From the NCBI GenBank assembly GCA_903889245.1, contig CAISWQ010000038.1, positions 68,763 through 132,762 of the forward strand: a stretch of 64,000 nt of DNA, read 5' to 3'. This document shows positions 7,330 to 64,000 of this stretch, piece by piece; the stretch's first letter is position 1; each line of letters begins with the position of its first letter. The notes beneath the pieces were generated by a model. It searched no databases. It was not told the origin of the DNA and saw nothing but the letters and a program-made list of their open reading frames with translations. The position numbers and the translations under genes are program-made. This stretch comes from an uncultured Lentisphaerota bacterium (GTDB taxonomy: Bacteria > Verrucomicrobiota > Kiritimatiellia > CAIQIC01).

Positions 7330-7473
7330 TTTTCCAGGGATTGGAAAACACAACGCCGGTTTTTCCAGGGATGGGAAGATTTCGCGCCCAGCTTTTCCAA
7401 GCCTTGGAAACTCTCGCTGAATTTTTCCCGAGGCCTGGAAAAAGCCGCCGTGAATTTTCCGGGCCTTGGAAAA
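7330..7473. repeat. array of 5 palindromic units (TTTTCCARGNNTGGAAAA-like) at 30-32 bp period
   Basis: The units start at about 7330, 7362, 7393, 7423 and 7455. Copies 3 and 5 are near-perfect; copies 2 and 4 are degenerate. Confidence 0.9.
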
Positions 7474-11346: not shown

Positions 11347-11397
11347 TTTTTCCAAGGGTTGGAAAAATTTCCGGCGTTTTTTCCAAGGCTTGGAAAA
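11347..11397. repeat. palindrome doublet (2 units, 31 bp apart)
   Basis: TTTTTCCAAGGGTTGGAAAAA and TTTTTTCCAAGGCTTGGAAAA, about 45 bp upstream of the PEP-CTERM gene start. Confidence 0.9.
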
Positions 11398-14678: not shown

Positions 14679-14730
14679 TTTTCCAATGCTTGGAAAAAGC
14701 GCTGATGCCACTTTCCAATCCTTGGAAAAA
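14679..14730. repeat. palindrome doublet (2 units, 32 bp apart)
   Basis: TTTTCCAATGCTTGGAAAAA and CTTTCCAATCCTTGGAAAAA, 50-100 bp upstream of the GH78 start. The 57-bp unit including its spacer is about 85% identical to the unit inside sulfatase 17624-17676. Confidence 0.9.
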
Positions 14731-32321: not shown

Positions 32322-32334
32322 TCTTGGAGGAACT

Positions 32335-33750: not shown

Positions 33751-33940
33751 AAAGGCGAACAGGTGGACAGAAAAACAAGAGACAAAAAAACGCCGCTGTT
33801 GGTAGCCCCGCCGCGAGGCGGGCGCGGCCGGTTTTCCAAGACGGGATGGAGCAGTCGTGGTTGTGACCAAGCAGGCCTAAATAGCGCCTTGCTGGAGTAA
33901 GTTGGTTTTGTTAAAAAGCACGCAGTTTTAGGAGGCGGAT

Positions 33941-35576: not shown

Positions 35577-35629
35577 CTTTTCCAAGCCCTGGGAAAGGCG
35601 GCCTTGTCTTTTTCCAAGGTTTGGAAGCT
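35577..35629. repeat. palindrome doublet (degenerate, 32 bp apart)
   Basis: CTTTTCCAAGCCCTGGGAAAG and TTTTTCCAAGGTTTGGAAGCT, 25-80 bp upstream of the TolB-like start. Confidence 0.8.
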
Positions 35630-39962: not shown

Positions 39963-40057
39963 GCCCATCTTGCTTGGCCCGGCATGCCTTTGGAAAACGA
40001 GAAGTTCGGGCTTCCAATCCCGCTGCTGCGGGACAAGTCCTTGGAAGAGGTGAAAAC

Positions 40058-43317: not shown

Positions 43318-43454
43318 GTTTTCCAAGGCTTGGAAAATTTTCCGCGCGTTTTTCCAAGGCTTGGAAAAGTGGCGCCGGGTTGTTGCTGGCGGCGGGCCTG
43401 CTTTTTCCAATGCCTGGAAAAACGGCTGCCGCGACTTTCCAATCCTTGGAAAAC
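43318..43454. repeat. 4 palindromic units arranged as two doublets
   Basis: Units at about 43318, 43349, 43402 and 43435. The first two are noncoding; the last two are read as FPMPGKT....FQSLEN at the sulfatase N-terminus. Confidence 0.9.
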
Positions 43455-47285: not shown

Positions 47286-50200
47286 GCCTGAAAAAAAACC
47301 TGTGTGGTATCGCGTGCCTGTCGCTGGTGTGTTCGGCGGCGGAGGTGCAACTGGAAAAGCTGCGCTGCGAATATCTGGAGAATCCGGCCGCCATCGCGGA
47401 ACCGCAGCCGCGCTTGAGCTGGTTGCTCAATGCGGACCAACGCGGCCAGCGTCAGACCGCGTGGCAGGTGCTGGTTGCCAGCAGCACGGAGTTGTTGCAA
47501 AAGGATACCGGCGATCTCTGGGACACGGGGCGCGTCGCGTCCGACCAGTCCATTCACGTGCGCTACGCCGGCAAGCCGCTGGCGTCGCGACAGCAGTGTT
47601 TCTGGAAGGTGCGCGTCTGGGATAAAGACAACAAGGCTTCGGACTGGAGCCAGCCGGCGGCGTGGGGCATGGGTCTGCTGCAACCCGGCGACTGGACCGG
47701 CAAGTGGATCGGCAAGTACGAGCCGGAGAGCGAAACACTGCTCGTGGGGCCGCAGTGGATTTGGTTCCCCGAACCCGGCCCGCCGCCGGGCAAGCGCTAT
47801 TTCCGGCGCGTCTTTGATCTGCCGGAGGGCCGCGCGGTCAAGTCGGCGCGCCTGCTGGTCGCGGCCGACAATCTTTCCACGATCCATCTCAACGAACTGC
47901 AGCTCGGCCAGGCCAATCACGCGACTGTGGCCGGCGCGTTCGATGTCGCGGAGCACCTCAAGCCCGGCCGCAATGTGCTGGCGGTGCTGGTGGATAACCT
48001 GGGCACCGGTCCCAATCCGGCGGGCCTGCTGGTGAAGCTGCAGGTGGAGTTTGCCAGCGGCGAGCCGCTGACGTTGCTGACCGACGGCACATGGAAAGCG
48101 GCGCAGCCCGAAACGGAAGGCTGGACGAAAGCGGATTTCAACGACAGCACGTGGACGGCCGCGAAGGTCCTCGGTCCGGCGGGTGGCCTGATCTGGGGCA
48201 AGGTGCGCGAGCCGGAAAACCGCCGCCTGCCCGCGCGCTGGCTGCGGAAGGAATTTCAGGTGATCCATCCGGTCCGTCGCGCGGTGGTTTCGTTCGCCGG
48301 CCTCGGCCTCTCGGAGCTGCATCTCAACGGCGGCAAGATCGGCGACGCGGTGCTCTCGCCGGGGCTGACGGAATATCCCAAGCGCGTCTTCTATGTGACG
48401 CACGATGTGACGGCACAGGTGCGGCAGGGCACGAACGCCATCGGCGTCGTGCTCGGCAACGGCCGCTATTTCGCGCCGCGCCTGTTCTCGCCGATGAAGA
48501 CGGCGACCTACGGCTGCCCGAAGCTGCTGCTCCAGATGCGCATCGAGTACGCGGATGGTGCCGCCGCCACCGAGCTGGTCAGCGATGAAACCTGGCGGCT
48601 GACGACGAGCGGGCCGATCCTCGCGAACAACGAATACGACGGCGAGGACTACGACGCGCGCTTGGAACTCGCCGGCTGGTCGCAGCCGGGCTTCGATGCG
48701 TCGGGCTGGTCGCCGCCGATGATCGCCGCCGCGCCGGGGGGCGTGCTGGCGCCGGAGCCGATTGCGCCGATTCGCGTCATCGAAACGCTCACGCCCCGCG
48801 CCGTGACGGAGCCGAAACCGGGCGTCTTCATCTTCGACATGGGCCAGAACATGGTCGGCTGGTGCCGCCTGCGCGTCCGCGGCCCGGCGGGGACGGAAAT
48901 CTCGCTGCGCCACTCGGAGACGCTGAAGCCCGATGGCACGCTCTATCTGGACAACATCCGCGACGCGAAGGTGACCGACCGGTACACGCTCAAGGGCGGC
49001 GGCGAGGAGACCTGGGAGCCGCGGTTCACCTATCACGGCTTCCGGTTCGTCGAGGTGCGCGGCTGGCCGGGCCGGCCGGCCGCCGCAGCGCTCGAGGGCC
49101 GCGTGGTACACGACGACCTGCCGCGCGCCGGCGGGTGGAGTTGCTCGCATCCGCTGCTGAATCGCATCTACTCAAATGTCCTGTGGGGTACGCGCGGCAA
49201 CTACCGCAGCATCCCCACCGATTGCCCGCAGCGCGACGAACGGCAGGGCTGGCTCGGCGACCGCTCCGCCGAGGCGCGCGGCGAGAGCTTCCTGTTCGAC
49301 ACGGCCGCATTCTACGCGAAGTGGCTGCAGGACATCGCCGACGCGCAGCGCGCCGATGGCGCGGTGCCGAATGTCGCGCCGCCCTACTGGCCGCTCTTCG
49401 AGGCGAACGTCACGTGGCCCAGCAGTTTCGTCATCATCCCCGGCCATCTGCTCGACCAGTACGGCGACACGGCCACCCTCGCGCGCCAGTGGCCGGCGCT
49501 GACGAAGTGGATGGCCTTCATCGGCGCCTCGATGACCAACGACCTCGTGATGCTGGACCGCTACGGCGACTGGTGCGTGCCGCCGGAGGATCTGCACGCG
49601 ATCCATTCGCTCGATCCCGCGCGTAAGACCGCGCCCGCGATTCTCGGCACGGCCTACTATTTCCACTGCTGCCGCCTGATGGAGCGCTACGCGACGGCGC
49701 TCGGCAAACCCGACGAGGCGCGCCAATACCGCGCGCGCGCCGACAAACTGAAGGCCGCCCTCAACCGCGACTTTTTCAAGCGCGACGCCGGCTATTACGA
49801 CAACGGCTCGCAGACCGCGTGTGTGCTGCCGCTGGCGCTGGACCTTGCGCCCGCCGACCAGCGCGCGCGCGTGATGGCGCGGCTGGTCGCGAAGATCGCC
49901 GACGAAAGCAGGAACCACGTCGGCACCGGGCTGATCGGCGGGCAGTGGCTGATGCGGACGCTGACGCGCAACGGCCGCGGCGACCTCGCCTACACGCTCG
50001 CCACGCAGGAAACCTATCCGAGTTGGGGCTATATGCTCGGCCGCGGCGCGACCACGATCTGGGAACTGTGGAACGGCGACACCGCGAACCCCGCGATGAA
50101 CTCCGGCAACCACGTCATGCTTATCGGCGACCTCGTCACGTGGTTCCACGAAGACCTCGCCGGCATCAAGTCCGACGAAGCGCAGCCCGGCTTCAAGCAC

Positions 50201-50512
50201 ATCCTGATGCGCCCGCAGCCGGTCGGCGCCCTGACGTGGGTGAGCGCCACGCACCGCTCGCCCTACGGCCTCATCGCCAGCGCGTGGCGGATCGAGGGCG
50301 GCCAGTTCCGCTGGCACATCACCGTGCCCGCGAACTCCGGCGCCACCGTGTGGCTGCCGGCCGCCGACGCCGCGGCCATCCGCGAAGGCAGCCAGCCGCT
50401 GGCGAAAGCCGTTGGGCTGAAGGTGCTCCGCACCGAGCCCGGCGCGGTCGTCTGCGAGGTGGCCTCCGGCAGCTATGACTTTGAACTTCCGTGGCAGGCG
50501 GTGGCGCGGTGA
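47282..50512 (+). CDS. alpha-L-rhamnosidase, glycoside hydrolase family 78
   Basis: Signal peptide. RLSWLL...QTAWQVLVA N-terminal block. DCPQRDERQGWLGD matches the GH78 signature block. ATGA overlap with the upstream gene. Confidence 0.85.
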   Translation: MSLKKNLCGIACLSLVCSAAEVQLEKLRCEYLENPAAIAEPQPRLSWLLNADQRGQRQTAWQVLVASSTELLQKDTGDLWDTGRVASDQSIHVRYAGKPLASRQQCFWKVRVWDKDNKASDWSQPAAWGMGLLQPGDWTGKWIGKYEPESETLLVGPQWIWFPEPGPPPGKRYFRRVFDLPEGRAVKSARLLVAADNLSTIHLNELQLGQANHATVAGAFDVAEHLKPGRNVLAVLVDNLGTGPNPAGLLVKLQVEFASGEPLTLLTDGTWKAAQPETEGWTKADFNDSTWTAAKVLGPAGGLIWGKVREPENRRLPARWLRKEFQVIHPVRRAVVSFAGLGLSELHLNGGKIGDAVLSPGLTEYPKRVFYVTHDVTAQVRQGTNAIGVVLGNGRYFAPRLFSPMKTATYGCPKLLLQMRIEYADGAAATELVSDETWRLTTSGPILANNEYDGEDYDARLELAGWSQPGFDASGWSPPMIAAAPGGVLAPEPIAPIRVIETLTPRAVTEPKPGVFIFDMGQNMVGWCRLRVRGPAGTEISLRHSETLKPDGTLYLDNIRDAKVTDRYTLKGGGEETWEPRFTYHGFRFVEVRGWPGRPAAAALEGRVVHDDLPRAGGWSCSHPLLNRIYSNVLWGTRGNYRSIPTDCPQRDERQGWLGDRSAEARGESFLFDTAAFYAKWLQDIADAQRADGAVPNVAPPYWPLFEANVTWPSSFVIIPGHLLDQYGDTATLARQWPALTKWMAFIGASMTNDLVMLDRYGDWCVPPEDLHAIHSLDPARKTAPAILGTAYYFHCCRLMERYATALGKPDEARQYRARADKLKAALNRDFFKRDAGYYDNGSQTACVLPLALDLAPADQRARVMARLVAKIADESRNHVGTGLIGGQWLMRTLTRNGRGDLAYTLATQETYPSWGYMLGRGATTIWELWNGDTANPAMNSGNHVMLIGDLVTWFHEDLAGIKSDEAQPGFKHILMRPQPVGALTWVSATHRSPYGLIASAWRIEGGQFRWHITVPANSGATVWLPAADAAAIREGSQPLAKAVGLKVLRTEPGAVVCEVASGSYDFELPWQAVAR

Positions 50513-50517
50513 TTGGA

Positions 50518-50568
50518 TTTTTCCAAGGGTTGGAAAACGAAACACGAATTTTTCCAAGCCTTGGAAAC
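50518..50568. repeat. palindrome doublet (31 bp apart)
   Basis: TTTTTCCAAGGGTTGGAAAAC and TTTTTCCAAGCCTTGGAAAC, beginning 6 bp after the GH78 stop and 25-75 bp upstream of the URO-D-family start. Confidence 0.9.
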
Positions 50569-51743: not shown

Positions 51744-53387
51744 ATGATGGCAACCTCGCGACGCGACTTCCTGAAATTGGCCGGCCTCGGCGCGCTGGCT
51801 TTTCCAAGCCTTGGAAAAACTGCCCCCGCCGGTTTCCAACCCTTGGAAAAGTCGCGCCCCAACTTTCTCATCATCCTCGCCGACGACATGGGGTTCTCGG
51901 ACGCGGGCTGCTACGGCAGTGACATCCGCACGCCGCACCTCGACCAACTCGCCGCGCGCGGGTTGCGGTTCACGCAGTTCTATAACACCGGCCGCTGCTG
52001 GCCGACGCGCAGCGCGCTGATCACCGGCTACTACCCGCAGCAGATTCACATGGACCCGCCGCGCGGCCGGCTGCCGCCGTGGACGCGTACGCTGGCACAT
52101 CGCCTCAAGCCGCTCGGCTACCGCAGCTATCACTCCGGCAAGTGGCACGTGAACGGCGCGCCGCGCCCCGTGGCCGAGGGCGGGTTCGAACACTCCTACG
52201 ACCTGGAAGACCACGACCGGAATTTCAATCCGCAGAAAATTTTGCAGGACGACCAGCCGCTGCCGCCGGTGGCGAAGGGCAGCGGTTATTACACGACCAC
52301 GGCGTTCTGTGACCACGCGATCAAATGCCTGAAGGAGCACGCGGAAAAATATTCTGCGCAGCCGTTCTTCTCTTATCTCGCGTTCACGGTGCCGCATTTC
52401 CCGTTGCAGGCGCCGCCGGAAGACATCGCGCGCTACCGTGACCGTTACCTCATGGGCTGGGACAAGGTGCGCGAGGAGCGCTGGCAGAAATTGCGGGAGC
52501 TGAAGATCGTCGCTTGCGGCCTCGCGCCGCTGGAGCCGGGTTTTGCGCCGCGCTACTTCAAGCCGGATGTGCTCGCCAAGCTGGGACCCGGCGAGTCGAA
52601 GCACGCGGTGCCATGGGTGCAGCTGACGGACGAGCAGAAGCAGTATCAGGCGACGAAGATGGCGATCCACGCCGCGATGATCGACCGCATGGATGCCGAG
52701 ATCGGCCGCGTGCTTGCGCAGGTGCGCGCGATGGGCGCCTGGGAGAACACGGTCATCTTCTTCCTTTCCGATAACGGCACCGATGCGACGCTGCTCGTGC
52801 GCGGCGATGGCCACGACCGCGCGGCGGCGCCCGGCTCGGCGGGCTCGTTCCTCTGCCTCGGCCCCGGCTGGTCGAGCGCGGGCAATGCGCCGTTCCGCCG
52901 CCACAAGGTTTGGACGCACGAGGGCGGCATCTCGACGCCGCTGATCGTACACTGGCCCAAGGGCATTGCCGCGCAGGGCGAGCTGCGGCGCGACGTGGGG
53001 CACGTCACTGATTTCGTACCGACGCTGCTCGAGCTTGCTGGCGATACGGCCGCGCCGGCGGCGGGCGCGCCACCGCTGCCGGGCCGGAGTCTCGTCCCGG
53101 CGTTTGGCAGGGACGGCAGCGTGACGCGCGACGAGGTCTTCTTCCATCACGAGGGCAATCGCGCGCTCCGGCAGGGCAACTTCAAGCTTGTCTCGGCGTG
53201 CGAAGACCACAATGAATGGGAACTATTCGATCTGGCGGGCGACCGGTGCGAGCAGCGCAATCTCGCCGCTGCGCAGCCGGAGCGGGTCCGCGCCATGGCC
53301 GCGCGCTGGCAGCAGCTGCAGGAGCAGTTCACGCGCGACGCCGGTCCGGATCTGCCGTTTGCGAAGAAGACCAGAAACGATGATTGA
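51744..53387 (+). CDS. sulfatase (arylsulfatase-like), Tat-secreted
   Basis: Tat motif SRRDFLKLAGLGALA. FLIILADDMGFSDAGCYG and CWPTRSALITGYYP (C-x-P-x-R). Confidence 0.9.
   Translation: MMATSRRDFLKLAGLGALAFPSLGKTAPAGFQPLEKSRPNFLIILADDMGFSDAGCYGSDIRTPHLDQLAARGLRFTQFYNTGRCWPTRSALITGYYPQQIHMDPPRGRLPPWTRTLAHRLKPLGYRSYHSGKWHVNGAPRPVAEGGFEHSYDLEDHDRNFNPQKILQDDQPLPPVAKGSGYYTTTAFCDHAIKCLKEHAEKYSAQPFFSYLAFTVPHFPLQAPPEDIARYRDRYLMGWDKVREERWQKLRELKIVACGLAPLEPGFAPRYFKPDVLAKLGPGESKHAVPWVQLTDEQKQYQATKMAIHAAMIDRMDAEIGRVLAQVRAMGAWENTVIFFLSDNGTDATLLVRGDGHDRAAAPGSAGSFLCLGPGWSSAGNAPFRRHKVWTHEGGISTPLIVHWPKGIAAQGELRRDVGHVTDFVPTLLELAGDTAAPAAGAPPLPGRSLVPAFGRDGSVTRDEVFFHHEGNRALRQGNFKLVSACEDHNEWELFDLAGDRCEQRNLAAAQPERVRAMAARWQQLQEQFTRDAGPDLPFAKKTRNDD
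51800..51850. repeat. palindrome doublet embedded in coding (translated FPSLGKT....FQPLEK)
   Basis: CTTTTCCAAGCCTTGGAAAAA and GGTTTCCAACCCTTGGAAAAG, 32 bp apart, directly after the Tat signal. Confidence 0.9.
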
Positions 53388-53400: not shown

Positions 53401-53705
53401 ATGAAAAAAACAATCTGGCTTGCGGGTCTGATGACGCTGGCGGCGGCGGCGCGACTTGGGCGAAAGCCGAGTATCAATCCATCCACGGAGTCATCAAATG
53501 CGACTGGAAGATCGAGGCGGGCAGATTCACGCTCCGCGCCACCGTGCCGCCGAACACCACCGCGACCATTCGCGTGCCCACGACCGCTGCGGCGAAAATC
53601 ACTGAAGGCGGCAAGCCTGTGTCGCCCGCAAGCACCACGTCTGACTGCGCGGTGTTCGAGGTCGGCTCGGGCAGCTTTGAATTCGTCTCGCCATTCAGCC
53701 GGTGA
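53401..53705 (+). pseudogene. gene remnant: a signal-peptide start fused out of frame to the last ~80 codons of a GH78 rhamnosidase
   Basis: ATG...MKKTIWLAGLMTLAAAA is followed, in a different frame, by AEYQSIHGVIKCDWKIEAGRFTLRATVPPNTTATIRVP...GSGSFEFV. That second part aligns with the C-termini of the GH78 genes at 14780 and 47282. Confidence 0.6.
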
Positions 53706-53746
53706 AAAAATCGCCGACCATGACATGGATATCAAAAGATAGAACG

Positions 53747-56700
53747 ATGAAAAGTTATTGCACGGCTGCACTCACCTTCCTTCTGCTCGGCTTCCAACTC
53801 ATTGCAGCCGTCAATCCTCGCGGCGGTTCTTGTGCTCCTTTCGATCTGACCACCGAGATGCAGGCGACTCCGCTGGGCATTGACCTCGACCAGGTCCGGG
53901 CGTCCTGGAAGATGCCGGTGCGGCTGGATGCCAAAGGGGCGGTTACACGCGACCAGCGGCAAACGGCCTATCAAATCCGCGTCGCCGCTTCGGCGCAGGC
54001 GCTGGAGAAAAGTCCGGCGGAACTGCTGTGGGACTCGGGCCGCATCGAGTCGAACGCCAGCCAGCTGGTGGCGCTGCCCGTGAAGCTTGATTCATTCCGG
54101 CGCTATTTTTGGACTGTCCGCGTTTGGGATGAGAACCAGCGCCCCGGCGATTATGCGCCGGCGACCTGGTTTGAAACCGGCGCGATCCGTCCCGCCGACT
54201 GGCAGCTTGGCGCTGCCTGCAAATGGATTCAGTCGCCGCTGACGCCGGTGGAAGACGAGAAGTTCCGCACATGGGCGAAGTTCGCCATCTTTCCGCTCCA
54301 GCCGCAGCTCGACAGATCGTGGACGATGTCGCCCGAAGACCTCGCCAAAGCGGACAAGGAATATTACGAACTGTTCCGCGACACGGCCTGGCCGGCGTCC
54401 CTGTTCCGGCGCGAGTTCGCGATCAGGAGTCCGCTGGTCCGGGCCAGACTCTACATTTCGGGGCTGGGCTATTACCGCGCGTTCTTGAACGGCCAAAAGC
54501 TGGGCGAGCGGGATTTAGCTCCCAGCGATTCGCATTTCGGGGTCAAGGTGAACTACCAGGTTTTCGATCTCACCTCGCAGTTGAACAGCGGCACGAACTG
54601 TCTGGGCGTGGAGGCGGTGACGGGTCGGCTGCGGGCCTGGCTGGGGCACACGCCGGAGCAATACCACGACCGCCCGGTGTTGCTGGCGCGGCTGGCGCTG
54701 GAGTATGCCGACGGATCGCAGGAAATCATTTCGTCCGACGAGTCGTGGCAATGTGGCGGCGGCGGGATTGAGCGGCAGAAGTTCTGGTGCGGCGAACTCT
54801 TCGACGCCAACACCGAACCGGTGGGTTGGAAACTGTCCGGCTTTGACGCGCGTGGCTGGGTCGCCGCCGAGGCAGCGAAACCCACACAGCCGCTGGGAGA
54901 ATTGCGATGGGATGCCATGCCGCCCGAGAAAATCGTCGAGCAAGGTCATCCGCTGAAGCGGACGAATCCTATGCCGGGAGTCTGGGTTTACGATTTCGGC
55001 AAACAATTGGCTGGCCGCGTGCGGCTGCACTTCAAGAATCTGCAAAAAGGCCAGACAGTGATTGTGCGTTATGCCGAGGCGATTGGCGGACAGGCCGAAG
55101 GGGTGCAACACAGCCTGGCCTACTACGATGGTTTTGGGAACACCGCACAGAAGCCGGGTACGCTCAAGTTCAAGCGCCGCGGCAGCGATGGCGCGTTCCG
55201 TTGGGCGGACGTCACCTTGCCCGGTGGAATAAAGCAAAGAGTGAATCAATGTTTCGGCGGACTGGCTTACACGGATATGTTTGTCTCCGCCGGCAAACCA
55301 GAGGAAGTTTGGTCGCCGTCGTTCACCTACACCGGCTTTCGTTATATCGAGGTGCTGGGGCTGCAAACGCCGCTGGAACTCGAAGCGGTGGACGGGTTCA
55401 ACCTGATCACCGTCTCGCCGCGCGTCGGCGACCTGACCACGGATAACACCAAGCTGAACCGCGTGCTGAAGGCGGTTCAGGACACGCTGGAGCTGAATTA
55501 CCATTCCCAGTTGCAGGACAACAACGGCGCTGAGCGCGGGCCGAACAGCGAGATGCCTGCGTTGAACAATCTCAACGTTGCCTACTGGCTGGGTCATCAC
55601 GCCCTCTTGAGCAAGCTGCTGGATGACAACATCAGGATGAGCGAGAAAACCCGCTGGCCGATCACTTTCGGTTGCGGCGCGCGGGCCACCACCGCCAACG
55701 CGCAGAATCACCACATTCTGCTTATAGACATGGATCATTACGGCCAGACGCCATCGGACTTGATGGCGTTCTATGGCGACCAGCGTTTGCTCGAACCGTT
55801 CATTCCGTGGATGAAAACTTTCATCCGGGAGGTGACCGAATACACCATCTGGAACCGGGTCACCCATTACGGCGATCACATCGCGTTGAGCGCGCAGGTG
55901 GATGTGCCGGAGCTGCGCGGCGAATACAAGACCCTTCCGGAAATGTTCGCGCAATGCGACGTGGCGATGCGCATCGGCCACCGGATGACGGACTTGCTGC
56001 AAGCGGTCGGGCGGCAATCGGAAGCCAAGGAAATCCAAGGCATCATGGATCGTTTCCAGCAGGATTGCTCCAGCCGTTTCTTCGATGCCCAGACTGGCGC
56101 GTGGTTGCCGATGCTTTACACCCGCCAGCAGTTGAACGCGGCCTTGGACGACGGCGGTTTCGAGCCACGTCCGTCGCGTGAGACGATGGCGAAAGAGATT
56201 GTGGAAGAATTCAAAACCAAGACCAAAGGCCACCTGATCACCGGCTCGCGGTTGAGCGATCCCATGCTGCACCTGCTCAGTCAGGGCGGCCAGGCCGACA
56301 CCGCCTGCGACATCCTGCTCCGCGAAGAATTTCCGAGCATCCTGAACATGATCAGCGGAACGGGCAACACAATCCGCGAAAGCTGGGGCGAAAACGACGC
56401 CTTCTCCCAGATCGAAGGCGTCACCGCGATGGGCAACTGGTTCTATCGTGACCTGGTGGGAATCGCCCCCGACCTCCGCCAGCCGGCGTTTGCGCACTTT
56501 GTGCTGCGGCCCATCCTGCCGCGTCAGTTGAACTCGGTGAAGTTCAGCTACGAAAGTCCGCGCGGTTTGATCCAGAGCCGGATGCTCCGCCAGAAAAAAC
56601 GTTTGCAGTGGGACGTGACCGTGCCGCCCAACACCACCGCCACCGTCTCGTTTCCCGCCGCCGCGCTCAACCAGATCACGGAGTCTGGCAAGCCGGTGCT

Positions 56701-56794
56701 GAAGGTCAGCGGGGTCGCTGCCGCCGCAGACACCAATGGGCAGCCGTCGGTGCAGCTCGGATCGGGAACTTACCACTTTGAAATGCCGCAATGA
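53747..56794 (+). CDS. GH78-family alpha-L-rhamnosidase-like protein (third paralog)
   Basis: Signal peptide MKSYCTAALTFLLLGFQLIAA. An RASWKM...QTAYQIRVA N-terminal block is homologous to the other two GH78 genes and the length is similar (about 1015 aa). The track ORF starts at 53702. Confidence 0.75.
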   Translation: MKSYCTAALTFLLLGFQLIAAVNPRGGSCAPFDLTTEMQATPLGIDLDQVRASWKMPVRLDAKGAVTRDQRQTAYQIRVAASAQALEKSPAELLWDSGRIESNASQLVALPVKLDSFRRYFWTVRVWDENQRPGDYAPATWFETGAIRPADWQLGAACKWIQSPLTPVEDEKFRTWAKFAIFPLQPQLDRSWTMSPEDLAKADKEYYELFRDTAWPASLFRREFAIRSPLVRARLYISGLGYYRAFLNGQKLGERDLAPSDSHFGVKVNYQVFDLTSQLNSGTNCLGVEAVTGRLRAWLGHTPEQYHDRPVLLARLALEYADGSQEIISSDESWQCGGGGIERQKFWCGELFDANTEPVGWKLSGFDARGWVAAEAAKPTQPLGELRWDAMPPEKIVEQGHPLKRTNPMPGVWVYDFGKQLAGRVRLHFKNLQKGQTVIVRYAEAIGGQAEGVQHSLAYYDGFGNTAQKPGTLKFKRRGSDGAFRWADVTLPGGIKQRVNQCFGGLAYTDMFVSAGKPEEVWSPSFTYTGFRYIEVLGLQTPLELEAVDGFNLITVSPRVGDLTTDNTKLNRVLKAVQDTLELNYHSQLQDNNGAERGPNSEMPALNNLNVAYWLGHHALLSKLLDDNIRMSEKTRWPITFGCGARATTANAQNHHILLIDMDHYGQTPSDLMAFYGDQRLLEPFIPWMKTFIREVTEYTIWNRVTHYGDHIALSAQVDVPELRGEYKTLPEMFAQCDVAMRIGHRMTDLLQAVGRQSEAKEIQGIMDRFQQDCSSRFFDAQTGAWLPMLYTRQQLNAALDDGGFEPRPSRETMAKEIVEEFKTKTKGHLITGSRLSDPMLHLLSQGGQADTACDILLREEFPSILNMISGTGNTIRESWGENDAFSQIEGVTAMGNWFYRDLVGIAPDLRQPAFAHFVLRPILPRQLNSVKFSYESPRGLIQSRMLRQKKRLQWDVTVPPNTTATVSFPAAALNQITESGKPVLKVSGVAAAADTNGQPSVQLGSGTYHFEMPQ

Positions 56795-56949
56795 ATCCAA
56801 CTATCCAACGCCTTTCAGCCGCCGTTCCCCGGGGCAGAGTTCTGTCTTCGCCGGCGCAACTGGCCGGCTGCGACACCGACGGGCTCGGCTACAAAAGCTT
56901 TCGGCCCGACGAGGTGGTGATTCCGGCGGACGCGGAAAAGTTAATTGCA

Positions 56950-57131
56950 GCTGTGGGCGCGGCGCGCATGGCTACATCCCCACGGCGAAGGCCTTCGCCG
57001 GCGGCAGCTACGAAACGTGGTTCGGCGAGCACTCCTACCTCATCACGCGCGCCGGCGAGATCACCGAGAGGGAAGCGTTGGACATCCTGGAGCGTTTGAA
57101 AGGCGCGGCGCAAAACAAAACCCGACGATGA
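56950..57131 (+). pseudogene. 3' fragment of a neutral-ceramidase-like gene (C-terminal ~55 codons only)
   Basis: The fragment encodes GAHGYIPTAKAFAGGSYETWFGEHSYLITRAGEITEREALDILERLK. It is about 85-90% identical at nucleotide level to 59390-59530, the C-terminus of the gene at 58195-59547. No upstream part of the gene is present. Confidence 0.6.
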
Positions 57132-58198
57132 ACACTACGCAACCAGTCCGCATGAAGACACGCTGCTGCATAGTGGCACTGCTGGCCGTAGGGTGCAGTT
57201 TGGCCCGGGGCGCAGAACTGCTGGACCGGCCCAAGAGCCTGTTCATCTCGCCATCCGCGCTGTGGAACATACCGGACGCGAAAATCCGCGAATGGTTCGA
57301 GCACATCTCCGCGCACCACCGGACGCCGGGCAGTCCGCAACGGATTGATGCGCTCGTGTTGTCGGACATCGCCGATGTTGATCCCGGCGACCCTTCGGGT
57401 TCCAGCGCGCGCCTGCTCGCGACGCCGGCAGCGGGCATGCCCACCAACTGGTGCCATCCGCTCAATCACAAGCTCGATGTCATCGCGCCACACTTCAAGA
57501 ACTTCGACGCCGTCTATGTGGGGACGGCCCACATCGCTTGGAAGGGCGCGGGCAACGCCTATGACACGGGAATTCTCGACGCAGGTTTCCGGCAGAAGAA
57601 TCTGCGGATCGCCACCAACGCGCTGGACCGCTTCATTGCGCGCTACCCGGACTTGAACTTCAAGTGGTATATCTCCTATGAGGCCAACCTGAACTGCTTC
57701 ACCGACCCCAAGATCAAGGATGCCTATGTCGCCTATCTCGCGGAACTGTGCCGGCAGATGAGGGCGCGCCGCGAGGCCCCCATCCTCTGGTCGCCGAACT
57801 GCTGGTCGAAATTCGATTCGCTGTCGGAAACGAATCGCGCCGCGCTCGTCGTCAGCCTAAAGGATTTCTTCGCGCGCGTCCCCATCACCGACCTGCACTA
57901 TCAGGATTTCATGGGCGGCAGTTCCGCGTCCGGCCCGTATCGCTTCACGCCACAGGATGTCAAAGGCTACTACGACCTGCTCGCCGGCCTGGGCGGCCCG
58001 CGCGTCCGTGTCAACGTGGAGATGTTCGTCGTCACCGACCTGAAAAGCTTCTCGCTCGCGCCGATGAGCCACGCCGACTATGTGCAGCGCATGCGGGACT
58101 ACGACAAGCTGCAACTGCCGCTCGGTGCCTCGTGGGAAATCCGCTACTGGTATCCGGCGCATCAGGGCGCTGCGCCCTGCAGAGGAACAAAACCATGA
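57128..58198 (+). CDS. secreted hypothetical protein
   Basis: ATGA overlap with the fragment ORF. Signal peptide MKTRCCIVALLAVGCSLARGA. No recognised motif. Confidence 0.55.
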   Translation: MNTTQPVRMKTRCCIVALLAVGCSLARGAELLDRPKSLFISPSALWNIPDAKIREWFEHISAHHRTPGSPQRIDALVLSDIADVDPGDPSGSSARLLATPAAGMPTNWCHPLNHKLDVIAPHFKNFDAVYVGTAHIAWKGAGNAYDTGILDAGFRQKNLRIATNALDRFIARYPDLNFKWYISYEANLNCFTDPKIKDAYVAYLAELCRQMRARREAPILWSPNCWSKFDSLSETNRAALVVSLKDFFARVPITDLHYQDFMGGSSASGPYRFTPQDVKGYYDLLAGLGGPRVRVNVEMFVVTDLKSFSLAPMSHADYVQRMRDYDKLQLPLGASWEIRYWYPAHQGAAPCRGTKP

Positions 58199-59547
58199 CA
58201 ACCCGGCAACGTTTCCAAGGATGGGAAATTGAAAGCAGTGGTTTTTCCACGCCTTGGAAACTGCTGCCGCTCGCGCTGCTGGCGGTGTGGCCGGCGCTGG
58301 CCAGTGACACGATCAAGGCGGGCGTGGGCATGGTGGACATCACACCGGCCGAGCCGGTCGTGCTGGCGGGTTCGCCGACCAGGCTGAAGTCCACGGCGGT
58401 CGGCACGCATCTCTATGCGAAAGCGCTGGTGCTGGCCGGCAATGGGTAGCGGGTGGCGATCGTCACCTTGGACACGTTGAAATATCCCGTGGACTGCGTC
58501 GTGCGGGCGCGCCAGGCCGTCGAGCAGGCCACCGGCATCGCAGCGAGCAACGTCATCATCTGTGCCTCGCACACGCACCGCGGTCCGCTGTGGCCCTCTT
58601 ACAAGGATCAACTCGTGACGCCCATCGCCGACGCGGTGGCGCAGGCGGCGCGCGACCTCGCGCCGTGTACGCTCGGTGTGGCGCAGGGCAGGGTCGAGGG
58701 CGTGAGCAAATGCCGCCGCGTGATCAAGGAAGGGCACGCTTGGAACCGCTGGCAGTTGCCGGCGGCGGAGCAGGAAAAATATCCGGCGGAGAGCGCGCTC
58801 GATCCCGCAGTGGGGGTACTGGCGGTGACCGGCCAGGACGGAAAGTATAAGGCAGTCGTGTTCAACTTTGCGTGTCACGCCGCCAACACGCGCGCCCTCG
58901 CGGTCTCGGCGGATTTTCCGGGCGATGCGCAGCAGGTGGTGCAAAAGAAATTGGGCTATGCCGTGCCCACGCTGTTTCTCACCGGCGCCTGTGGCGATGT
59001 GAATCCCATCTACAGCGCGAAACGCGAATTGTTCGGCGAGAAGCTCGGTGGCGAAATCATGCGCTGCCTGGGCCGGCTTGAACCGATCCAGAAGCCGACG
59101 CTGGCGCTGGAATGCCGCGAGTTGCACATGCCGGGCCGCGAGCAGCCGGAATTCAAGGAGGCGGAGGTGATCCGCAACTGGCCCGGCCAGCTTGAGCACT
59201 ACAGAAAATCGTTCAGCGACATGAAGCAGCGGGCCAAGCCGGCCTATCCATTTTTCATCACCAGCCTGCGTCTGGGCGAGGACTTCACCATCGTGACCAA
59301 TCCCGACGAGCTGTTCTGCGAAATCGGTTTGAGCATCAAGCAGCAGTCGCCCTTCAAGCACACGCTGGTCGTCGAGCAGGTCAACGGCGCGCACGGCTAC
59401 ATCCCCACGGCGAAGGCGTTCGCCGGCGGCAGCTACGAGACGTGGTTCGGCGAGCACTCCTATCTCACCACGCGCGCCGGCGACATCATCGAAAAGGAAT
59501 CGCTGGACATCCTGAATCGCTTGAAGCACGCTGAACACAAGCCCTAG
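58195..59547 (+). pseudogene. neutral/alkaline ceramidase-like gene interrupted by an in-frame TAG at 58447-58449 (pseudogene, sequencing error or stop-codon readthrough)
   Basis: The two track ORFs 57748..58449 and 58453..59547 are in the same frame. Read together they align across the TAG with the intact paralog at 60948: ...AKALVLAGNG*RVAIVTLD versus ...AQAVIIASGGKRLAIVGVD. The downstream segment ICASHTHRGP matches the ceramidase catalytic region. Confidence 0.55.
58211..58261. repeat. palindrome doublet (degenerate, 32 bp apart) at the 5' end of the ceramidase-like gene
   Basis: GTTTCCAAGGATGGGAAAT and GTTTTTCCACGCCTTGGAAAC. If the ATG at 58195 is the start, they are read as RFQGWEI....FSTPWK before the hydrophobic signal segment. 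Confidence 0.75.
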
Positions 59548-59636: not shown

Positions 59637-60941
59637 ATGAACAACAAGCACAGCCAGACGAGCCGGCGGACTTTTTTGAAAAAAATCACCGCGGCTACCG
59701 GCGCGGTGATGTGCCCAGCTTTCATCCCCGCGCCGGTCTTGGGACGCGGCGGTGCGGTGGCGCCGAGCGAAAAAATCGGGCTGGGCGTGATCGGGATGGG
59801 CTCACGCTGCGCGGTGGTGCTGGATTCGATGCTGGGCGAACCGGATGTGCGTTGCCTCGCGGTGTGCGATGTGCAGGCTGGCCGCCGTACGAGCGCGAAG
59901 GCGATGGTGGACTCCCGCAATGGCGCCAAGGATTGCGCCACCTACGGCGATTTTCGCGAGCTGCTGGCGCGGCCGGACATCGATGCCGTGCTCATCGCCA
60001 CCGGCGATCGCTGGCACGCGCTGGCCTCGATCCTGGCGGCGCGCGCCGGCAAGGATATTTACAGCGAGAAACCGTGCGGGATCAACAGCGCCGAGTGCGC
60101 GCTGATCGAGACGACGATGCGCCAGTGCGGGCGGGTCTATCAGGGCGGCACGCAGCGCCGCAGCGTGGCTAATTTCCAGAAGGCGGTCCAACTGGCCCAC
60201 AGCGGCAAGCTCGGCCGGCTGCGCACGCTCCATGCGTCCGTCTATGAACCCTTCATCAATCTCGCCTGTCTGCCGGCCGAGCCGGAGCCGCCGCGCGCGG
60301 AGCTGGATTGGGACATGTGGCTCGGCCCCGCGCCGTGGCGGCCCTACAACCACCGCTACGTCGCCGGCCGCGGCTGGCAAGGCTACGAGGATTTCACCGC
60401 GGGCGCCAACCTGATGGATTGGGGCGCGCACACGGTGGATATCTGCCAGTGGGCCAACCGCGCCGACGCCAGCGGCCCCGTCGAGTTCGAACTGGCTCCC
60501 GACAAAATCCTGGCGCGCTATGCCAACGGCGTCGTGCTCGAACTCAACTACGAGCGGCGCGTGCCGCAGCAGAGCCAGTTGAACCTGGGCACGTGCCCGG
60601 TGCGGTTCGTCGGCGACGAGGGCTGGGTGGAAACCGGCGATACCGGCGAGATCGCCGTCTATCCCGCTTCGCTGGAGAGTGCCCTGCACCGCGGACAGAA
60701 AGTCACGGGCCTCGACGCGGGCGGCCACGCGCGGAATTTCTTCGACTGCGTCCGCTCCCGCGCAGCGCCGGTCGTCAATCCCACCGTGATGAAGCACAGC
60801 CACAACGCCTGTCTCGCCGCCGCCACCGCGTGGCAGCTCAACCGCAAAATGACATTCGATCCGGTGAAGGCCGAGTTCATCAACGACGACGAAGCCAACC
60901 GGCTGCGTTCCCGCGCCATGCGCGAGCCGTGGATCATCTGA
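59637..60941 (+). CDS. Gfo/Idh/MocA-family NAD-dependent oxidoreductase with Tat signal (GH109-like architecture)
   Basis: Tat motif SRRTFLKKITAATGAV. Rossmann region GLGVIGMGSRCA and DAVLIATGDRWHA. Confidence 0.8.
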   Translation: MNNKHSQTSRRTFLKKITAATGAVMCPAFIPAPVLGRGGAVAPSEKIGLGVIGMGSRCAVVLDSMLGEPDVRCLAVCDVQAGRRTSAKAMVDSRNGAKDCATYGDFRELLARPDIDAVLIATGDRWHALASILAARAGKDIYSEKPCGINSAECALIETTMRQCGRVYQGGTQRRSVANFQKAVQLAHSGKLGRLRTLHASVYEPFINLACLPAEPEPPRAELDWDMWLGPAPWRPYNHRYVAGRGWQGYEDFTAGANLMDWGAHTVDICQWANRADASGPVEFELAPDKILARYANGVVLELNYERRVPQQSQLNLGTCPVRFVGDEGWVETGDTGEIAVYPASLESALHRGQKVTGLDAGGHARNFFDCVRSRAAPVVNPTVMKHSHNACLAAATAWQLNRKMTFDPVKAEFINDDEANRLRSRAMREPWII

Positions 60942-60947: not shown

Positions 60948-62297
60948 ATGAAACACGTCCTCACCATCCTCGCCGCCTGGCTGCTTTGGCCGCTGGCGGC
61001 GGCTTCATCCGAAAGCAGTCTTGAGGTCGGCTTTGGTCAAGTGGATATCACGCCGCCGGTCGGGGGCATCATCACGGGGCCGGCCTCGCCGGTGAGCACG
61101 GGCACGGATGATCCGCTCAAGGCGCAGGCGGTGATCATCGCGAGCGGCGGGAAAAGGCTGGCCATCGTGGGCGTGGACCTGGTGAAGATCCGCCACGATC
61201 TGGCCGAGGCCGCCATCACGCAGGCCGCGCAGCGGGCGGGGCTCGCGCGCGAAGCGGTGCTGATCTGCCCGAGCCACAACCATAGCTCGCCGCTGATCCC
61301 GGCGCACGGCGACAAGAACACCATCAACCGCGACTATATCGCCACGCTGCCGAAGGCGATTGCCGACAGCATCGAGCAGGCGAACAAAAACCTGCAGCCC
61401 GCGCGCCTCTCCATCGGCCGCTCGCTGGTCTACGAGGGCCACATCAACCGCCGCGTGCTTTCCAAGGCGGACGGGCTCGCGCTGAACGTGTGGCTGAAAA
61501 AAGTGAACGACCTCAAGCAGGTGCCGCAGGTGCTGGGGACGGAAGGCCCGATCGATCCCGAGCTGTGGGTGGTCCGGTTCGATGCGCCCGATGGAAAAAT
61601 GCTCGGGGCGCTGGTGAACTTCACCTGTCATCCGTGCCTGCATGACCGCATCCAAACGCACAACTGGTCGGCGGACTACCCCGGCGTCATCGCGGCGCAG
61701 CTCGCGCAGGCGTTCGGGCCGCAGGCGAAGTGCATCTTCATGCAGGGCAGCGCCGGCAACATCCAGCCGGCGGTCACGTTCACGCCCGACTGGCTGGAGC
61801 GCGCGTCGGTGTTCGCGCGCGCCGCGGTCGAGGCCGCCAGTAACGCCGTCGCCGTCGCGGGGCCCATCGCCGTTGACTATGCGCGGCGCGACGTGGCGGT
61901 GCCGCGCTGCAATCCCGCGGCCCAGCGCGAGGGCGCCATCGAGCGCCTCGGCTGGCGGCCGGAAGCCTTCGAGGGCACCAAGCGCACTGCCGCCGCGCTG
62001 CCCGCCATGCTGACGGTCCCCGTGAGCGCCGCGCGCCTCGGCCCGTTCGCGCTCGCGACCAATCCCGGCGAGCTCTTCGTCGAGTGGGGACTGGACATCA
62101 AGAAACGCTCGCCGTTCCCGCACACCATCGTGAGCGAACTGACCAACGAGTCGATCGGCTACGAGCCCACCGCACTGGCCTTCCAGCACGAAGGCTATGA
62201 AACGCTCTCCGGCGTCAACTACGTCGCGCTCGCAGGCATCCAGCAACTGGTGGATACAGCGGTGGAGCTGTTGCAGCAGTTATGGGCGCAGAAATGA
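60948..62297 (+). CDS. neutral/alkaline ceramidase-like hydrolase (intact paralog)
   Basis: Signal peptide MKHVLTILAAWLLWPLAAA. GFGQVDITPP, LICPSHNHSSP and a C-terminal ESIGYEPTALAFQHEGYET. Collinear with the gene at 58195-59547. Confidence 0.75.
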   Translation: MKHVLTILAAWLLWPLAAASSESSLEVGFGQVDITPPVGGIITGPASPVSTGTDDPLKAQAVIIASGGKRLAIVGVDLVKIRHDLAEAAITQAAQRAGLAREAVLICPSHNHSSPLIPAHGDKNTINRDYIATLPKAIADSIEQANKNLQPARLSIGRSLVYEGHINRRVLSKADGLALNVWLKKVNDLKQVPQVLGTEGPIDPELWVVRFDAPDGKMLGALVNFTCHPCLHDRIQTHNWSADYPGVIAAQLAQAFGPQAKCIFMQGSAGNIQPAVTFTPDWLERASVFARAAVEAASNAVAVAGPIAVDYARRDVAVPRCNPAAQREGAIERLGWRPEAFEGTKRTAAALPAMLTVPVSAARLGPFALATNPGELFVEWGLDIKKRSPFPHTIVSELTNESIGYEPTALAFQHEGYETLSGVNYVALAGIQQLVDTAVELLQQLWAQK

Positions 62298-62315: not shown

Positions 62316-62433
62316 TTTTCCAAGGATTGGTCCCGACCTCGCAGCGCGTCGGGATTCCAAGCCTTGGGAAATCCCCGGCGCTTTTTTCCAAGCCTTGGAA
62401 AAAACGGCCGAAAATTTTCCAAGCCTTGGAAAG
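62316..62433. repeat. array of 4 palindromic units lying between convergent gene ends
   Basis: Units at about 62316 (degenerate), 62352, 62383 and 62414. The last two are near-perfect (TTTTTTCCAAGCCTTGGAAAAAA and ATTTTCCAAGCCTTGGAAAG). Confidence 0.9.
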
Positions 62434-62476: not shown

Positions 62477-63105
62477 TCAGTCGAGATGGATGATGCCCTG
62501 CCGGATGGCTTCGATGGCCGCCTGGGTACGGCTCGTGACGCCGAGCTTCATGAACAGGTCGCGCAGGTGCGTCTTGACACTTTCATCGCCGATGGCCAGC
62601 GCGGTGGCGATTTCCTTGTTGCTCAGGCCGTTGACCAGATGCTGTAACACTTCGAGTTCGCGCGGCGAGAGGTCCTTGCGCCGGCTGCGTTCGCGCTGGC
62701 GCGCGGCGGCGTCGGGCGGCATGACGCGCCCGCCACGATGGATGGTGCGCACGGCGGTGACCAGTTCGGCGCTGGTGAGATCCTTGAGGACATAGCCGCT
62801 CGCGCCGGCCTGCAGGGCGCGATAGATATCCTCATCGCCGTCATAGACCGTGACGATCAACACGTGCGTGGCGGGCCAGCGCTTGCGGATGGCGAGTGTG
62901 GCCTCGACGCCGCCGCCACCGGGCAACCGCAAATCCATCAGCACGACATCGGGCTGGTGGCGCGCACACTGCGCCAGCGCCTCGGGTACGTCGCCGGCTT
63001 CGGCCACCACGCGCATGTCGGGTTGGCCGCTAAGAATGGTGCCGAGTCCGACGCGCAGCGCCGGATGATCATCCACGATCAGGATGGAGATGGTGTCAGG
63101 CATGT
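62477..63105 (-). CDS. NarL/FixJ-family response regulator (REC plus LuxR-type HTH)
   Basis: MPDTISILIVDDHPALRVGL...VLMDLRLPGGGG. HTH LSPRELEVLQHLVNGLSNKEIATALAIGDESVKTHL. The internal ATG at 63103 is preferred over the track's longer ORF. Confidence 0.85.
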
Positions 63106-64000
63106 GGCACGGTGAGTTCGATGGTGGTGCCCGCGTTGGGCGCGCTGCGGATGTGCAAGTTGGCGTGGAGCGCGCTGGCGCGGGCGCGCATGCCGGGCAG
63201 GCCGAAGCCGCCGTGGTCGGAAGCCGGCGGGGTGGCGTCCAGTCCGCGGCCATCGTCGCTGACCGCCAGGCGCACGGCGGCTTCCTGATAGTCCAACGTC
63301 AGCGTGATTTTTTTGGCCTGCGCGTGGCGCACCGCATTCGTCAGGGCTTCCTGTCCGATGCGCAGGAGGTCGTTCTCCATCTGGGCCGGCAGCGGGCGTG
63401 GCGTGCCGCCCGGGCGGAACTCGAACGCGACAGCGCTGCCTTCGGTGAGCTGGCGGCCGAGCCGTTCGAGGGCTGCGCCGAGCGAGCCTTCTTCGAGCGC
63501 CTGCGCGCGCAGCGCCCAGACGGTGTGCCGTGCCTCGGCGAGGCTCTGGCGTACCAGTTGGCGCGCGAGGTCGAGATGGCGGCGCGCGGCGTCGGGGATT
63601 TCTCCCAGCCGGTCACCGAGCGCTTCGAGTTGGATGCTGATGCCGGCGAAGCCCTGGGCTAGGGTGTCGTGAATTTCGCGCGCCATGCGGTTGCGCTCGG
63701 CGAAGACCGCCGTGAACTGCGCCCGCGCCGCGGCCCGCGCCTGCCGTTCCTCGCGTAAGCGCCGCCACGCGCGCAACCAGAGCGCGCCGAGTGCGACGGC
63801 GAGGATGGCGGCGACGGCAGCGGCGATCCGCAGAGGTGTCCACCACGATGGCGCGGCCAGCAAGGTCACGTCGGCGAAGCCGCGCGCGAGCAGGATGAAG
63901 CCCTGCGGTTTGCGGTGCGTGACGAACGCCTCCCAACTCCCGACCTCGGCCTCGCAGACGCCGCGCACGGCCAGTTCGCTGCCGATACGCCACGGCAGTT
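63096..64000 (-). CDS. sensor histidine kinase (HisKA_3 plus HATPase_c), C-terminal part; N-terminus beyond the window end
   Basis: TM helix LRIAAAVAAILAVALGALWL. H-box ERNRMAREIHDTLAQGF. The ATPase region includes VSDDGRGL. The frame is open to the window edge. The gene overlaps the regulator start by about 10 nt. Confidence 0.8.
   Translation of the reverse strand, partial: LPWRIGSELAVRGVCEAEVGSWEAFVTHRKPQGFILLARGFADVTLLAAPSWWTPLRIAAAVAAILAVALGALWLRAWRRLREERQARAAARAQFTAVFAERNRMAREIHDTLAQGFAGISIQLEALGDRLGEIPDAARRHLDLARQLVRQSLAEARHTVWALRAQALEEGSLGAALERLGRQLTEGSAVAFEFRPGGTPRPLPAQMENDLLRIGQEALTNAVRHAQAKKITLTLDYQEAAVRLAVSDDGRGLDATPPASDHGGFGLPGMRARASALHANLHIRSAPNAGTTIELTVPHA

Follow-up and report, generated by a model that had tools for sequence, protein, structure and literature searches.

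We examined a locus at which a ceramidase-like gene is interrupted by an in-frame stop codon, lying in a 64-kb stretch of DNA that we refer to throughout as the window. The interrupted gene (gene A) and its intact partner (gene B) belong to a Verrucomicrobia-type genome, where they lie within a large cluster for polysaccharide degradation, and the features of the locus, with the evidence used to delimit them, are the following:

56960..57131, + strand: isolated relic, the 3' end of an A-type gene ('A0'), with about 49 codons that can be aligned and a divergent tail (blastn, tblastn)
57128..58198, + strand: gene X, rare and lipoprotein-like, situated between relic and gene A (sequence, weak DUF4434 similarity)
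58195..59547, + strand: gene A, a ceramidase-like secreted hydrolase of 450 codons, read here as a young pseudogene (translation, Pfam, orthologues)
58195..58446, + strand: upstream part of gene A, 84 codons, with signal peptide, first two core β-strands and GVGxVDITP motif
58213..58259, no strand assigned: dispersed palindromic repeat (TTCCAAGGNNTGGAA), two units within the first 22 codons of gene A (sequence)
58453..59547, + strand: downstream ORF of gene A, 364 aa from a GTG, as annotation pipelines call it (exact match to P0001)
59637..60941, + strand: Gfo/Idh/MocA oxidoreductase gene between A and B (Pfam PF01408, PF19051)
60948..62297, + strand: gene B, an intact ceramidase-like gene and conserved partner of A (BLASTP, Pfam)

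Translation of 58195-59547 yields a single internal stop, the TAG at 58447-58449 (codon 85, GNG*RVAIVTLD; the next base is C), with no second stop and no frameshift. Both sides share one frame and look coding, with a GC3 of 0.88 5' of the TAG and 0.87 3' of it, which bears out the in-frame TAG reported in the initial annotation; in the 64-kb window it is the sole stop flanked on either side by a GC pattern typical of coding sequence. Full-length orthologues of gene A, at 65-77% identity, are collinear with it, and the stop falls inside the gene that they encode in one piece. The part before the TAG, annotated separately as an 84-aa protein (P0121), aligns with the beginning of the catalytic domain of neutral ceramidase, including GVGxVDITP, and holds two strands (residues 40-48 and 74-81) with a block pLDDT of 86-92 in the AF2 model; the downstream ORF carries SHTHRGP, FACH and the C-terminal GYIPT and GSYE motifs. 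The palindromic repeat feature near the start is also present in the orthologue of the closest relative, L060.

Genes A and B are predicted to encode secreted, zinc-hydrolase-like proteins with a neutral ceramidase fold. Against the PF04734 profile (N-terminal domain, cutoff 32.1 bits) they score 39.8 and 41.9 bits, respectively, covering positions 3-229 and 2-233 of 509. This is the sole Pfam match of either protein, so that no separate C-terminal ceramidase-domain family is matched, and the C-terminal domain of bona fide neutral ceramidases was not found by Pfam in A or B. In the profile search, too, the family matches solely these neutral ceramidase structures (PDB 4wgk, E 2.7e-5), and the predicted structure of gene A, with a mean pLDDT of 61 and values below 50 over the C-terminal 80 residues, matches neutral ceramidases only in Foldseek (4wgk, E 3.9e-15; 2zws, E 1.1e-14; TMq 0.49-0.52; next match, E 1e-3). 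The zinc and catalytic residues given in the 2ZWS and 4WGK papers are reportedly a His-x-His, a second His, a Glu and two Tyr. HTH (126-128) and H228 of gene A align in a significant alignment to HTHSGP and FAIH of 4wgk; the Tyr of GYIPT and that of GSYE align with 2zws in a non-significant stretch only, and the Glu is unaligned. Compared with the neutral ceramidases of human (4WGK) and Pseudomonas aeruginosa (2ZWS/2ZXC), the GVGxxDxT start, HTHxGP and the histidine of FAxH align, at only 14-17% identity, whereas the A and B proteins are shorter (449-450 aa against chains of 646-688 aa) and, unlike neutral ceramidases, are encoded as a pair inside glycan-degradation clusters. A literature search on neutral ceramidase in Verrucomicrobia returned nothing relevant. 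'Ceramidase' is used here as a fold label only, and the genomic context of the two genes is glycan degradation.

As the initial annotation held, gene A is collinear with gene B (BLASTP, 428 columns, E 4e-46) and its TAG stands opposite the Lys of GGKRLAIV, at an identity of only 30%. Each of the two genes has its own orthologues at about 60-75% identity (60-74% for the B type), and A-type and B-type orthologues adjoin in about 20 of 52 related loci, and also in L060, in which B begins 3 nt past A. Neighbouring A and B genes recur in many Verrucomicrobia and Planctomycetes genomes, in clusters for glycan degradation that also carry GH78, GH127, GH32 and sulfatase genes. Because they are 30% identical and their orthologues lie side by side in many genomes, A and B are an ancient pair; the recent duplication once proposed for them does not agree with this identity or with two separate, adjoining sets of orthologues.

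No related locus had a Gfo match between A and B, and the oxidoreductase gene lies there in this lineage only. Either A or B can be lost in single lineages, and one related locus, L002, has a B-type 3' relic before a large ORF.

The column of codon 85 differs between orthologues (Q, T, R, K, L, E or V), with Q in 21 of 42, CAG in 15 of the 42 and a stop in none. All three of the closest relatives of gene A (L002, L003 and L005) have CAG, so TAG is one C-to-T transition away, and the ancestral codon was most likely CAG (Gln).

Beyond the stop itself, we looked for signs of decay. The initial annotation had taken relaxed constraint downstream of the TAG as the mark of a decaying gene, and none is seen: dN/dS 3' of the TAG is 0.17-0.24 against orthologues, where intact pairs give 0.15-0.23, in a test with little power at a dS of 0.6-1.0. 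At invariant columns gene A has a single private change; of the 196 columns conserved to 90% or more it deviates at 14, compared with 10-16 for sequences at a similar distance from their nearest relative. Neither private substitutions, conserved-column deviations nor dN/dS on both sides of the TAG revealed an excess of decay. This lack of relaxation fits a very young lesion. Gene A apart from its stop resembles a working orthologue, and I read it as a young pseudogene. The unrelaxed state is equally compatible with a gene still working through readthrough.

Upstream, the sequence described initially as a 3' fragment of the family is indeed one, at 90% identity, but it starts at 56960 rather than 56950, has about 49 alignable codons and is read in the frame of the ORF at 56736-57131, not in the frame that opens at 56950. 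In blastn, 56960-57100 matches gene A at 59385-59525 with 90.1% identity over 141 nt (E 2e-50), and in tblastn 56961-57107 matches residues 398-446 with 85.7% amino-acid identity. Besides A, B and this fragment, the window contains no further copies of the family. In the 162 nt 5' of the fragment there is no coding signature in the same frame, and a tblastx search of the spacer at 56781-56965 for remnants of other genes gave noise only.

The fragment differs from gene A at 17 of 144 positions (dS 0.29), by codon position 4, 4 and 9, whereas gene A differs from its L002 orthologue, in another MAG, at 13 of 144 (dS 0.23). The fragment is thus no closer to gene A than that orthologue is, which speaks against a recent duplication; of the 'recent duplication and decay' suggested at first, decay stands, in the form of a real nonsense codon and a dead relic, and recent duplication does not. 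At conserved sites the fragment has 8 private changes and gene A has 0; the fragment is an older relic that evolves under relaxed constraint, and not a recent one. The differences from gene A are spread unevenly, with 4 of 81 nt in codons 398-424, all synonymous, and 11 of 60 nt in codons 425-444; gene conversion between the two is conceivable, short of demonstrated. A four-point distance analysis of the position of the fragment ended in a tie. Its history is read from 144 nt, and its sister relation to gene A solely from four rare states that the two have in common.

The TGA of the fragment (57129-57131) overlaps the ATG of gene X (57128), which has ATGA overlaps at both ends. Gene X carries an LLAVGC lipobox, recognized by eye, and a Pfam DUF4434 match with an E value of 0.0073, below the cutoff. 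Its homologues form 10 protein clusters among 5.8 billion, none of which adjoins an A-type gene, and the A0-X arrangement was not found in other genomes. A 750-aa gene A homologue (P0010) was considered as a possible fusion with X and rejected, its N-terminal extension being unrelated. Around the locus, a search for sigma-70-like promoters and terminators gave no informative signal.

Taken together, we think it likely that gene A, a member of this old pair, was killed by a young CAG-to-TAG change and that the fragment derives from a separate, older event. In this population, a single C-to-T transition would have turned codon 85 from CAG (Gln) into TAG. Ribosomes that begin at the normal start would then make no more than the signal peptide and two core strands and hence no complete gene A enzyme, and the undecayed state of the rest of the gene suggests that the lesion is young. 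Sequence 56960-57131 would be the 3' end of A0, another A-type copy and sister to A that lost its first ~1.2 kb, and this relic probably formed in an event separate from and much older than the TAG. Its place beside gene X, whose start it overlaps, may be why it survived; with A0-X unseen in other genomes, that the relic was kept for the start signals of X is something we infer. The loss of function of gene A, the order of events and their timing are likewise deduced from comparing sequences.

The alternative that fares best is that the stop is leaky: a near-cognate tRNA, with tRNA-Gln the most plausible, would occasionally read UAG-C, and gene A would be a functional, selected gene of low output. 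We hold this unlikely. Two published effects count in its favour: at the +4 position, which is C here, U lowers read-through in Escherichia coli and C raises it at all three stops in yeast (PMC5289835), and near-cognate insertion of Q, Y, K, W and E at UAG is documented in E. coli (PMC4333366). Such decoding would bring back the ancestral residue or insert another tolerated one into a variable turn, at a column that varies among orthologues, and gene A shows no further decay and an unchanged dN/dS. However, the undecayed state is expected anyway for a young lesion, and the natural terminator of gene A is likewise TAG followed by C, so that termination in such a context is evidently efficient enough. 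Readthrough at background level is usually small. The programmed readthrough raised in the initial annotation is unsupported on several counts: no stop occurs at the site in any of the 42 orthologues, TAG serves as an ordinary terminator in this window, and no stimulatory RNA structure was found near it (fold of 58440-58560, which spans the TAG; z 0.23). The stronger form, in which tRNA-Gln reads the codon at a useful rate and recreates the ancestral protein, leaving gene A down-tuned or conditionally expressed and explaining the absent decay, seems less likely still. Were the stop to prove leaky, gene A would exemplify natural near-cognate amber suppression by which a gene stays in use.

Re-initiation, in which ribosomes would restart at the GTG at 58453 and make a 364-aa cytoplasmic protein without signal peptide and with its metal-binding motifs kept, is in our view very unlikely. 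That GTG lies 3 nt past the TAG and in frame, and the candidate zinc and catalytic motifs (HTH, FACH, GYIPT and GSYE) are all 3' of the stop; the product, however, would lack not only the signal peptide but also the two confidently predicted core strands and GVGxVDITP, no obvious ribosome-binding sequence was seen by eye 5' of the GTG, and the tblastn alignments of all 42 orthologues begin at residue 46 or before and cover the gene on either side of the stop.

The initial annotation also raised a sequencing error. A true CAG lies one base away, at the orthologue consensus, and a MAG consensus can hold errors, although substitution errors in short-read consensus sequences are rare. Against this, a Logan contig (L001, run ERR4194106), the product of a second assembler, agrees with the window at 100% identity across 4174 bp that include the TAG. 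Each half, of 84 aa (P0121) and of 364 aa (P0001), is recorded on nine contigs (NCBI, ENA and Logan), and the TAG is implied on the nine, of differing length, that have both half-ORFs; these may all share a single near-clonal lake population or study as their source, and they speak to the reproducibility of the base call and not to fixation across the species. A search of 5.8 billion clusters shows no near-identical gene A protein of full length, the best matches of that length being 75-77% identical, and a scan of GTDB species representatives gave nothing closer than 75% amino-acid identity. JGI metagenome contigs held no intact allele or close relative when the TAG site was queried with N as its first base, nor any match to a degenerate back-translation of GNGxRVAIVTLDT. 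The stop codon in gene A is reproducible and not an assembly artefact; an error is effectively excluded.

Recoding of the TAG as an amino acid, by reassignment, pyrrolysine or a resident suppressor tRNA, deserves next to no credence even though the TAG lies opposite Gln, the amino acid that certain recoded phages and eukaryotes assign to this codon: the genetic code is standard here, with TAG ending at least three credible genes in the window (at 4399, at 51726 and, for gene A, at 59547), no other in-frame stop inside a coding frame and no tRNA gene in the 64 kb, no Rfam match around the locus and no orthologue with TAG at the position.

A young nonsense mutation in an old gene is ordinary gene decay, of a known kind, and matters little beyond annotation. 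Gene A is better annotated as one pseudogene at 58195-59547 than as proteins of 84 aa and 364 aa, and 56960-57131 as a gene remnant. Of modest further value is the conserved A/B pair, seen repeatedly in glycan-degradation clusters of both Verrucomicrobia and Planctomycetes.

Gene A resembles ordinary bacterial nonsense pseudogenes in its probable one-step mutation, in the split of the gene into two ORFs, and in the standard code and the lack of recoding signals; it differs from them in showing no relaxed constraint yet, as expected for a very recent event. The upstream relic is comparable to gene remnants preserved beside a downstream gene, being an A-type 3' piece that ends in an ATGA overlap with X. 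With systems of programmed UAG decoding, such as pyrrolysine, amber suppression and phages that read TAG as Gln, the locus shares an in-frame TAG where relatives have Gln, but unlike in those systems the TAG is not conserved, occurs once in 64 kb where TAG otherwise terminates, and is accompanied by no tRNA or RNA element in the window.

The in-frame TAG of gene A most likely has an ordinary explanation: with good confidence we read gene A, which belongs to an old gene pair, as a pseudogene made recently by a CAG-to-TAG nonsense mutation, with an older remnant of a further copy nearby. The features concerned are as follows.

56960-57131, + strand: relic A0, the 3' end of a further A-type copy
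57128-58198, + strand: gene X, a rare lipoprotein-like gene
58195-59547, + strand: gene A, a ceramidase-like gene with TAG at 58447-58449
59637-60941, + strand: Gfo/Idh/MocA gene
60948-62297, + strand: gene B, the intact relative of gene A

As the initial annotation had described, gene A runs through 450 codons in a single frame with this TAG as its one internal stop (GNG*RVAIVTLD in translation). Codon-position GC is 0.70, 0.53 and 0.88 upstream of the TAG and 0.62, 0.48 and 0.87 downstream, a coding-typical pattern on both sides for a window of 64% GC, and no second stop flanked in this manner occurs elsewhere in the window. The reported collinearity with gene B also holds (428 columns, E 4e-46), the TAG column being Lys in gene B. 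Across 42 gene A orthologues, drawn from species-representative genome loci and aligned by codon, the same column holds Gln in 21 (CAG 15, CAA 6) and T, R, K, L, E or V in the remainder, and the nearest relatives (L002, L003 and L005) all have CAG, so the TAG is likely a single C-to-T transition away from an ancestral CAG.

The stop aside, gene A does not appear to be decaying. It carries one private substitution at otherwise invariant columns and 14 deviations at the 196 columns with conservation of 90% or more, compared with 10-16 in sequences similarly distant from their nearest relative. Relaxed constraint downstream of the TAG, which had been raised as a sign of decay, is not seen: pairwise dN/dS past the TAG is 0.17-0.24 for gene A versus 0.15-0.23 between intact orthologues, and ahead of it 0.17-0.40 versus 0.20-0.25 over a stretch that takes in the variable signal peptide. 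Since dS to the nearest relatives is 0.6-1.0, the decay tests are blind to a short period of relaxation. The lack of any second lesion across 1.35 kb speaks for a recent nonsense mutation. Other A-type orthologues also seem disrupted: that of Chthoniobacter flavus Ellin428 (L041, 8001-9244) is frameshifted at residue 142/143, those in L049 and L051 contain internal deletions, only fragments are left in L050, and L047 has two frame changes, which may be errors, as its record name suggests a long-read MAG.

Genes A and B both match the neutral/alkaline ceramidase N-terminal domain (PF04734) just over threshold. In the PDB, the A-family profile finds only the human and Pseudomonas neutral ceramidases (E 2.7e-5 and 7e-4), aligning the GVGxVDITP start, the HTHxGP motif and the FACH histidine, and the gene A AlphaFold model, although mediocre (mean pLDDT 61, pTM 0.68), matches only these human and Pseudomonas structures (E about 1e-14, TMq about 0.5). 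Because both proteins are about 450 aa long with a partial PF04734 as their sole Pfam match, 'ceramidase-like' is a label of fold, not of function. The 84 codons ahead of the TAG encode a signal peptide plus core strands 40-48 and 74-81, both modelled with confidence, and the TAG sits in a turn ahead of strand 87-92. A product ending at codon 85 would be useless.

The sole rival with some life is a leaky stop. The +4 base, which bears on readthrough (PMC5289835), is C, near-cognate insertion of Gln at UAG has been recorded for E. coli (PMC4333366), many residues are tolerated at the column, and gene A is without decay; however, its natural terminator is likewise TAG followed by C, and nothing points to readthrough above background. 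Re-initiation at GTG 58453 would yield a truncated cytoplasmic protein, but one without conserved core elements, predicted to miss both the export signal and part of the core.

A sequencing error, as initially suggested, is contradicted by the data. The 364-aa ORF protein past the TAG (P0001) and the 84-aa one ahead of it (P0121) are exact database proteins, each on 9 contigs of varied lengths from NCBI and ENA, the former also in Logan, and a Logan contig assembled from run ERR4194106 agrees with the window at every one of 4174 bp, the TAG among them. Near-identical full-length gene A proteins are absent among 5.8 billion clusters (best full-length matches 75-77% identical), and JGI metagenome contigs scanned for the TAG site held no related population; an assembly error is thus very unlikely. 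Recoding is contradicted as well, and TAG reassignment and the programmed readthrough proposed earlier are unsupported, since TAG terminates the credible genes ending at 4399 and 51726 as well as gene A itself, the window has no tRNA gene and no Rfam match, the 121 nt across the TAG (58440-58560) are no more stably folded than shuffled sequence (z 0.23), and all 42 orthologues have a sense codon at this column.

Genes A and B are an ancient pair rather than the product of the recent duplication first envisaged: they are only 30% identical, each has its own orthologues (A-type 60-77% identical to gene A, B-type 60-74% identical to gene B), and the two types adjoin, with either one first, in about 20 of 52 related Verrucomicrobia and Planctomycetes loci and also in L060. 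The adjoining pairs lie in L003, L004, L005, L011, L014, L015, L019, L021-L026, L029, L034, L038, L039, L044, L045, L048 and L060. In MAGs such pairs are often set among glycan-degradation genes, with GH32 in L002 and L060. L060 is the closest relative, at 80% nucleotide identity; there B begins 3 nt past A, with a GH32 gene upstream. The Gfo/Idh/MocA gene that separates A from B is peculiar to the window's lineage, and so is gene X ahead of A. Gene X carries a lipoprotein-type signal (LLAVGC), and its similarity to DUF4434 stays below threshold; its family is very rare (10 clusters among 5.8 billion proteins) and has other neighbours elsewhere, namely AXE1 esterase, URO-D-like, SSF transporter and AraC genes.

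The upstream 3' fragment exists as annotated (56960-57100 versus 59385-59525, 90.1% over 141 nt, E 2e-50), with its frame corrected to that of ORF 56736-57131. The 49 residues encoded by 56961-57107 are 85.7% identical to gene A residues 398-446. Conservation at the 3' end of this family is unusually high, even in DNA. Across one 144-nt stretch, 13 sites separate gene A from its L002 orthologue (dS 0.23) and 17 separate it from the fragment (dS 0.29), so that 90% identity is no sign of the recent duplication once proposed. Four states rare among orthologues, including Val-to-Ile in GYIPT, are common to both, which places the fragment as a likely sister of gene A. The asymmetry in private changes at conserved sites, 8 in the fragment (6 at first or second codon positions) versus 0 in gene A, indicates that the fragment has been under relaxed constraint, and an omega of about 0.4 on its branch, from a rough polarisation of substitutions, suggests that the lost copy, A0, was functional part of the time. 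Differences from gene A are uneven (4/81 nt in codons 398-424, all synonymous; 11/60 nt in codons 425-444); partial gene conversion from gene A could have occurred, in a piece too short to show it. The sequence ahead of 56960 shows neither similarity nor a coding signal in the fragment's frame. The TGA of the fragment's ORF overlaps the ATG of gene X, whose TGA overlaps the ATG of gene A (ATGA at 57128-57131 and 58195-58198), which indicates tight operon packing and possibly translational coupling. We infer that A0, X, A and B were once packed tightly in that order and that most of A0 was later deleted.

The genes around A and B point to glycan breakdown (among them two GH78 rhamnosidases, GH127, sulfatases, esterases and a rhamnogalacturonase-like protein), and credible called genes in 1-62297, nearly all on the + strand, form a large polysaccharide-degradation cluster. 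A two-component pair directly past gene B possibly regulates it.

Members of the cluster and the adjoining regulators
1-62297, + strand: GH127 with DUF7402, two sulfatase genes, esterase, rhamnogalacturonase-like protein, URO-D-like protein
32263-33750, 33932-35515 and 39944-41680: among several long ORFs without Pfam match
47102-50512, + strand: GH78 rhamnosidase (Pfam)
53702-56794, + strand: GH78 rhamnosidase (Pfam)
62477-63968, - strand: LuxR/GerE-type response regulator and HisKA_3 histidine kinase (gene calls, Pfam labels)

The window also holds a dispersed near-palindromic repeat, TTCCAAGGNNTGGAA, with 65 strand-matches at up to 2 mismatches versus 0.7 expected from shuffling. It forms short arrays of 2-5 units spaced about 31-32 bp, mostly right past the stop codons of + strand genes, and two units lie within the first 22 codons both in gene A and in its L060 orthologue. 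The exact core is nearly absent from the other fetched loci and has no Rfam match; the repeat could be a REP-like element or an operator array.

Examples of the repeat
7332-7471
11350-11395
14681-14727
17627-17673
19098-19144
30076-30183
35580-35626
43321-43451
50521-50566
51802-51848
58213-58259
62318-62431

Nonsense pseudogenes of the kind seen in gene A are already known. The fragment, too, has a parallel: L002 (11429-11675) mirrors the window in keeping an intact A-type gene and, of the B-type, only a frameshifted 3' relic, which lies downstream of an inserted 667-aa gene without Pfam match and ahead of a 1246-aa GH32/LamG ORF, its first part in frame with the 5' end of that ORF.
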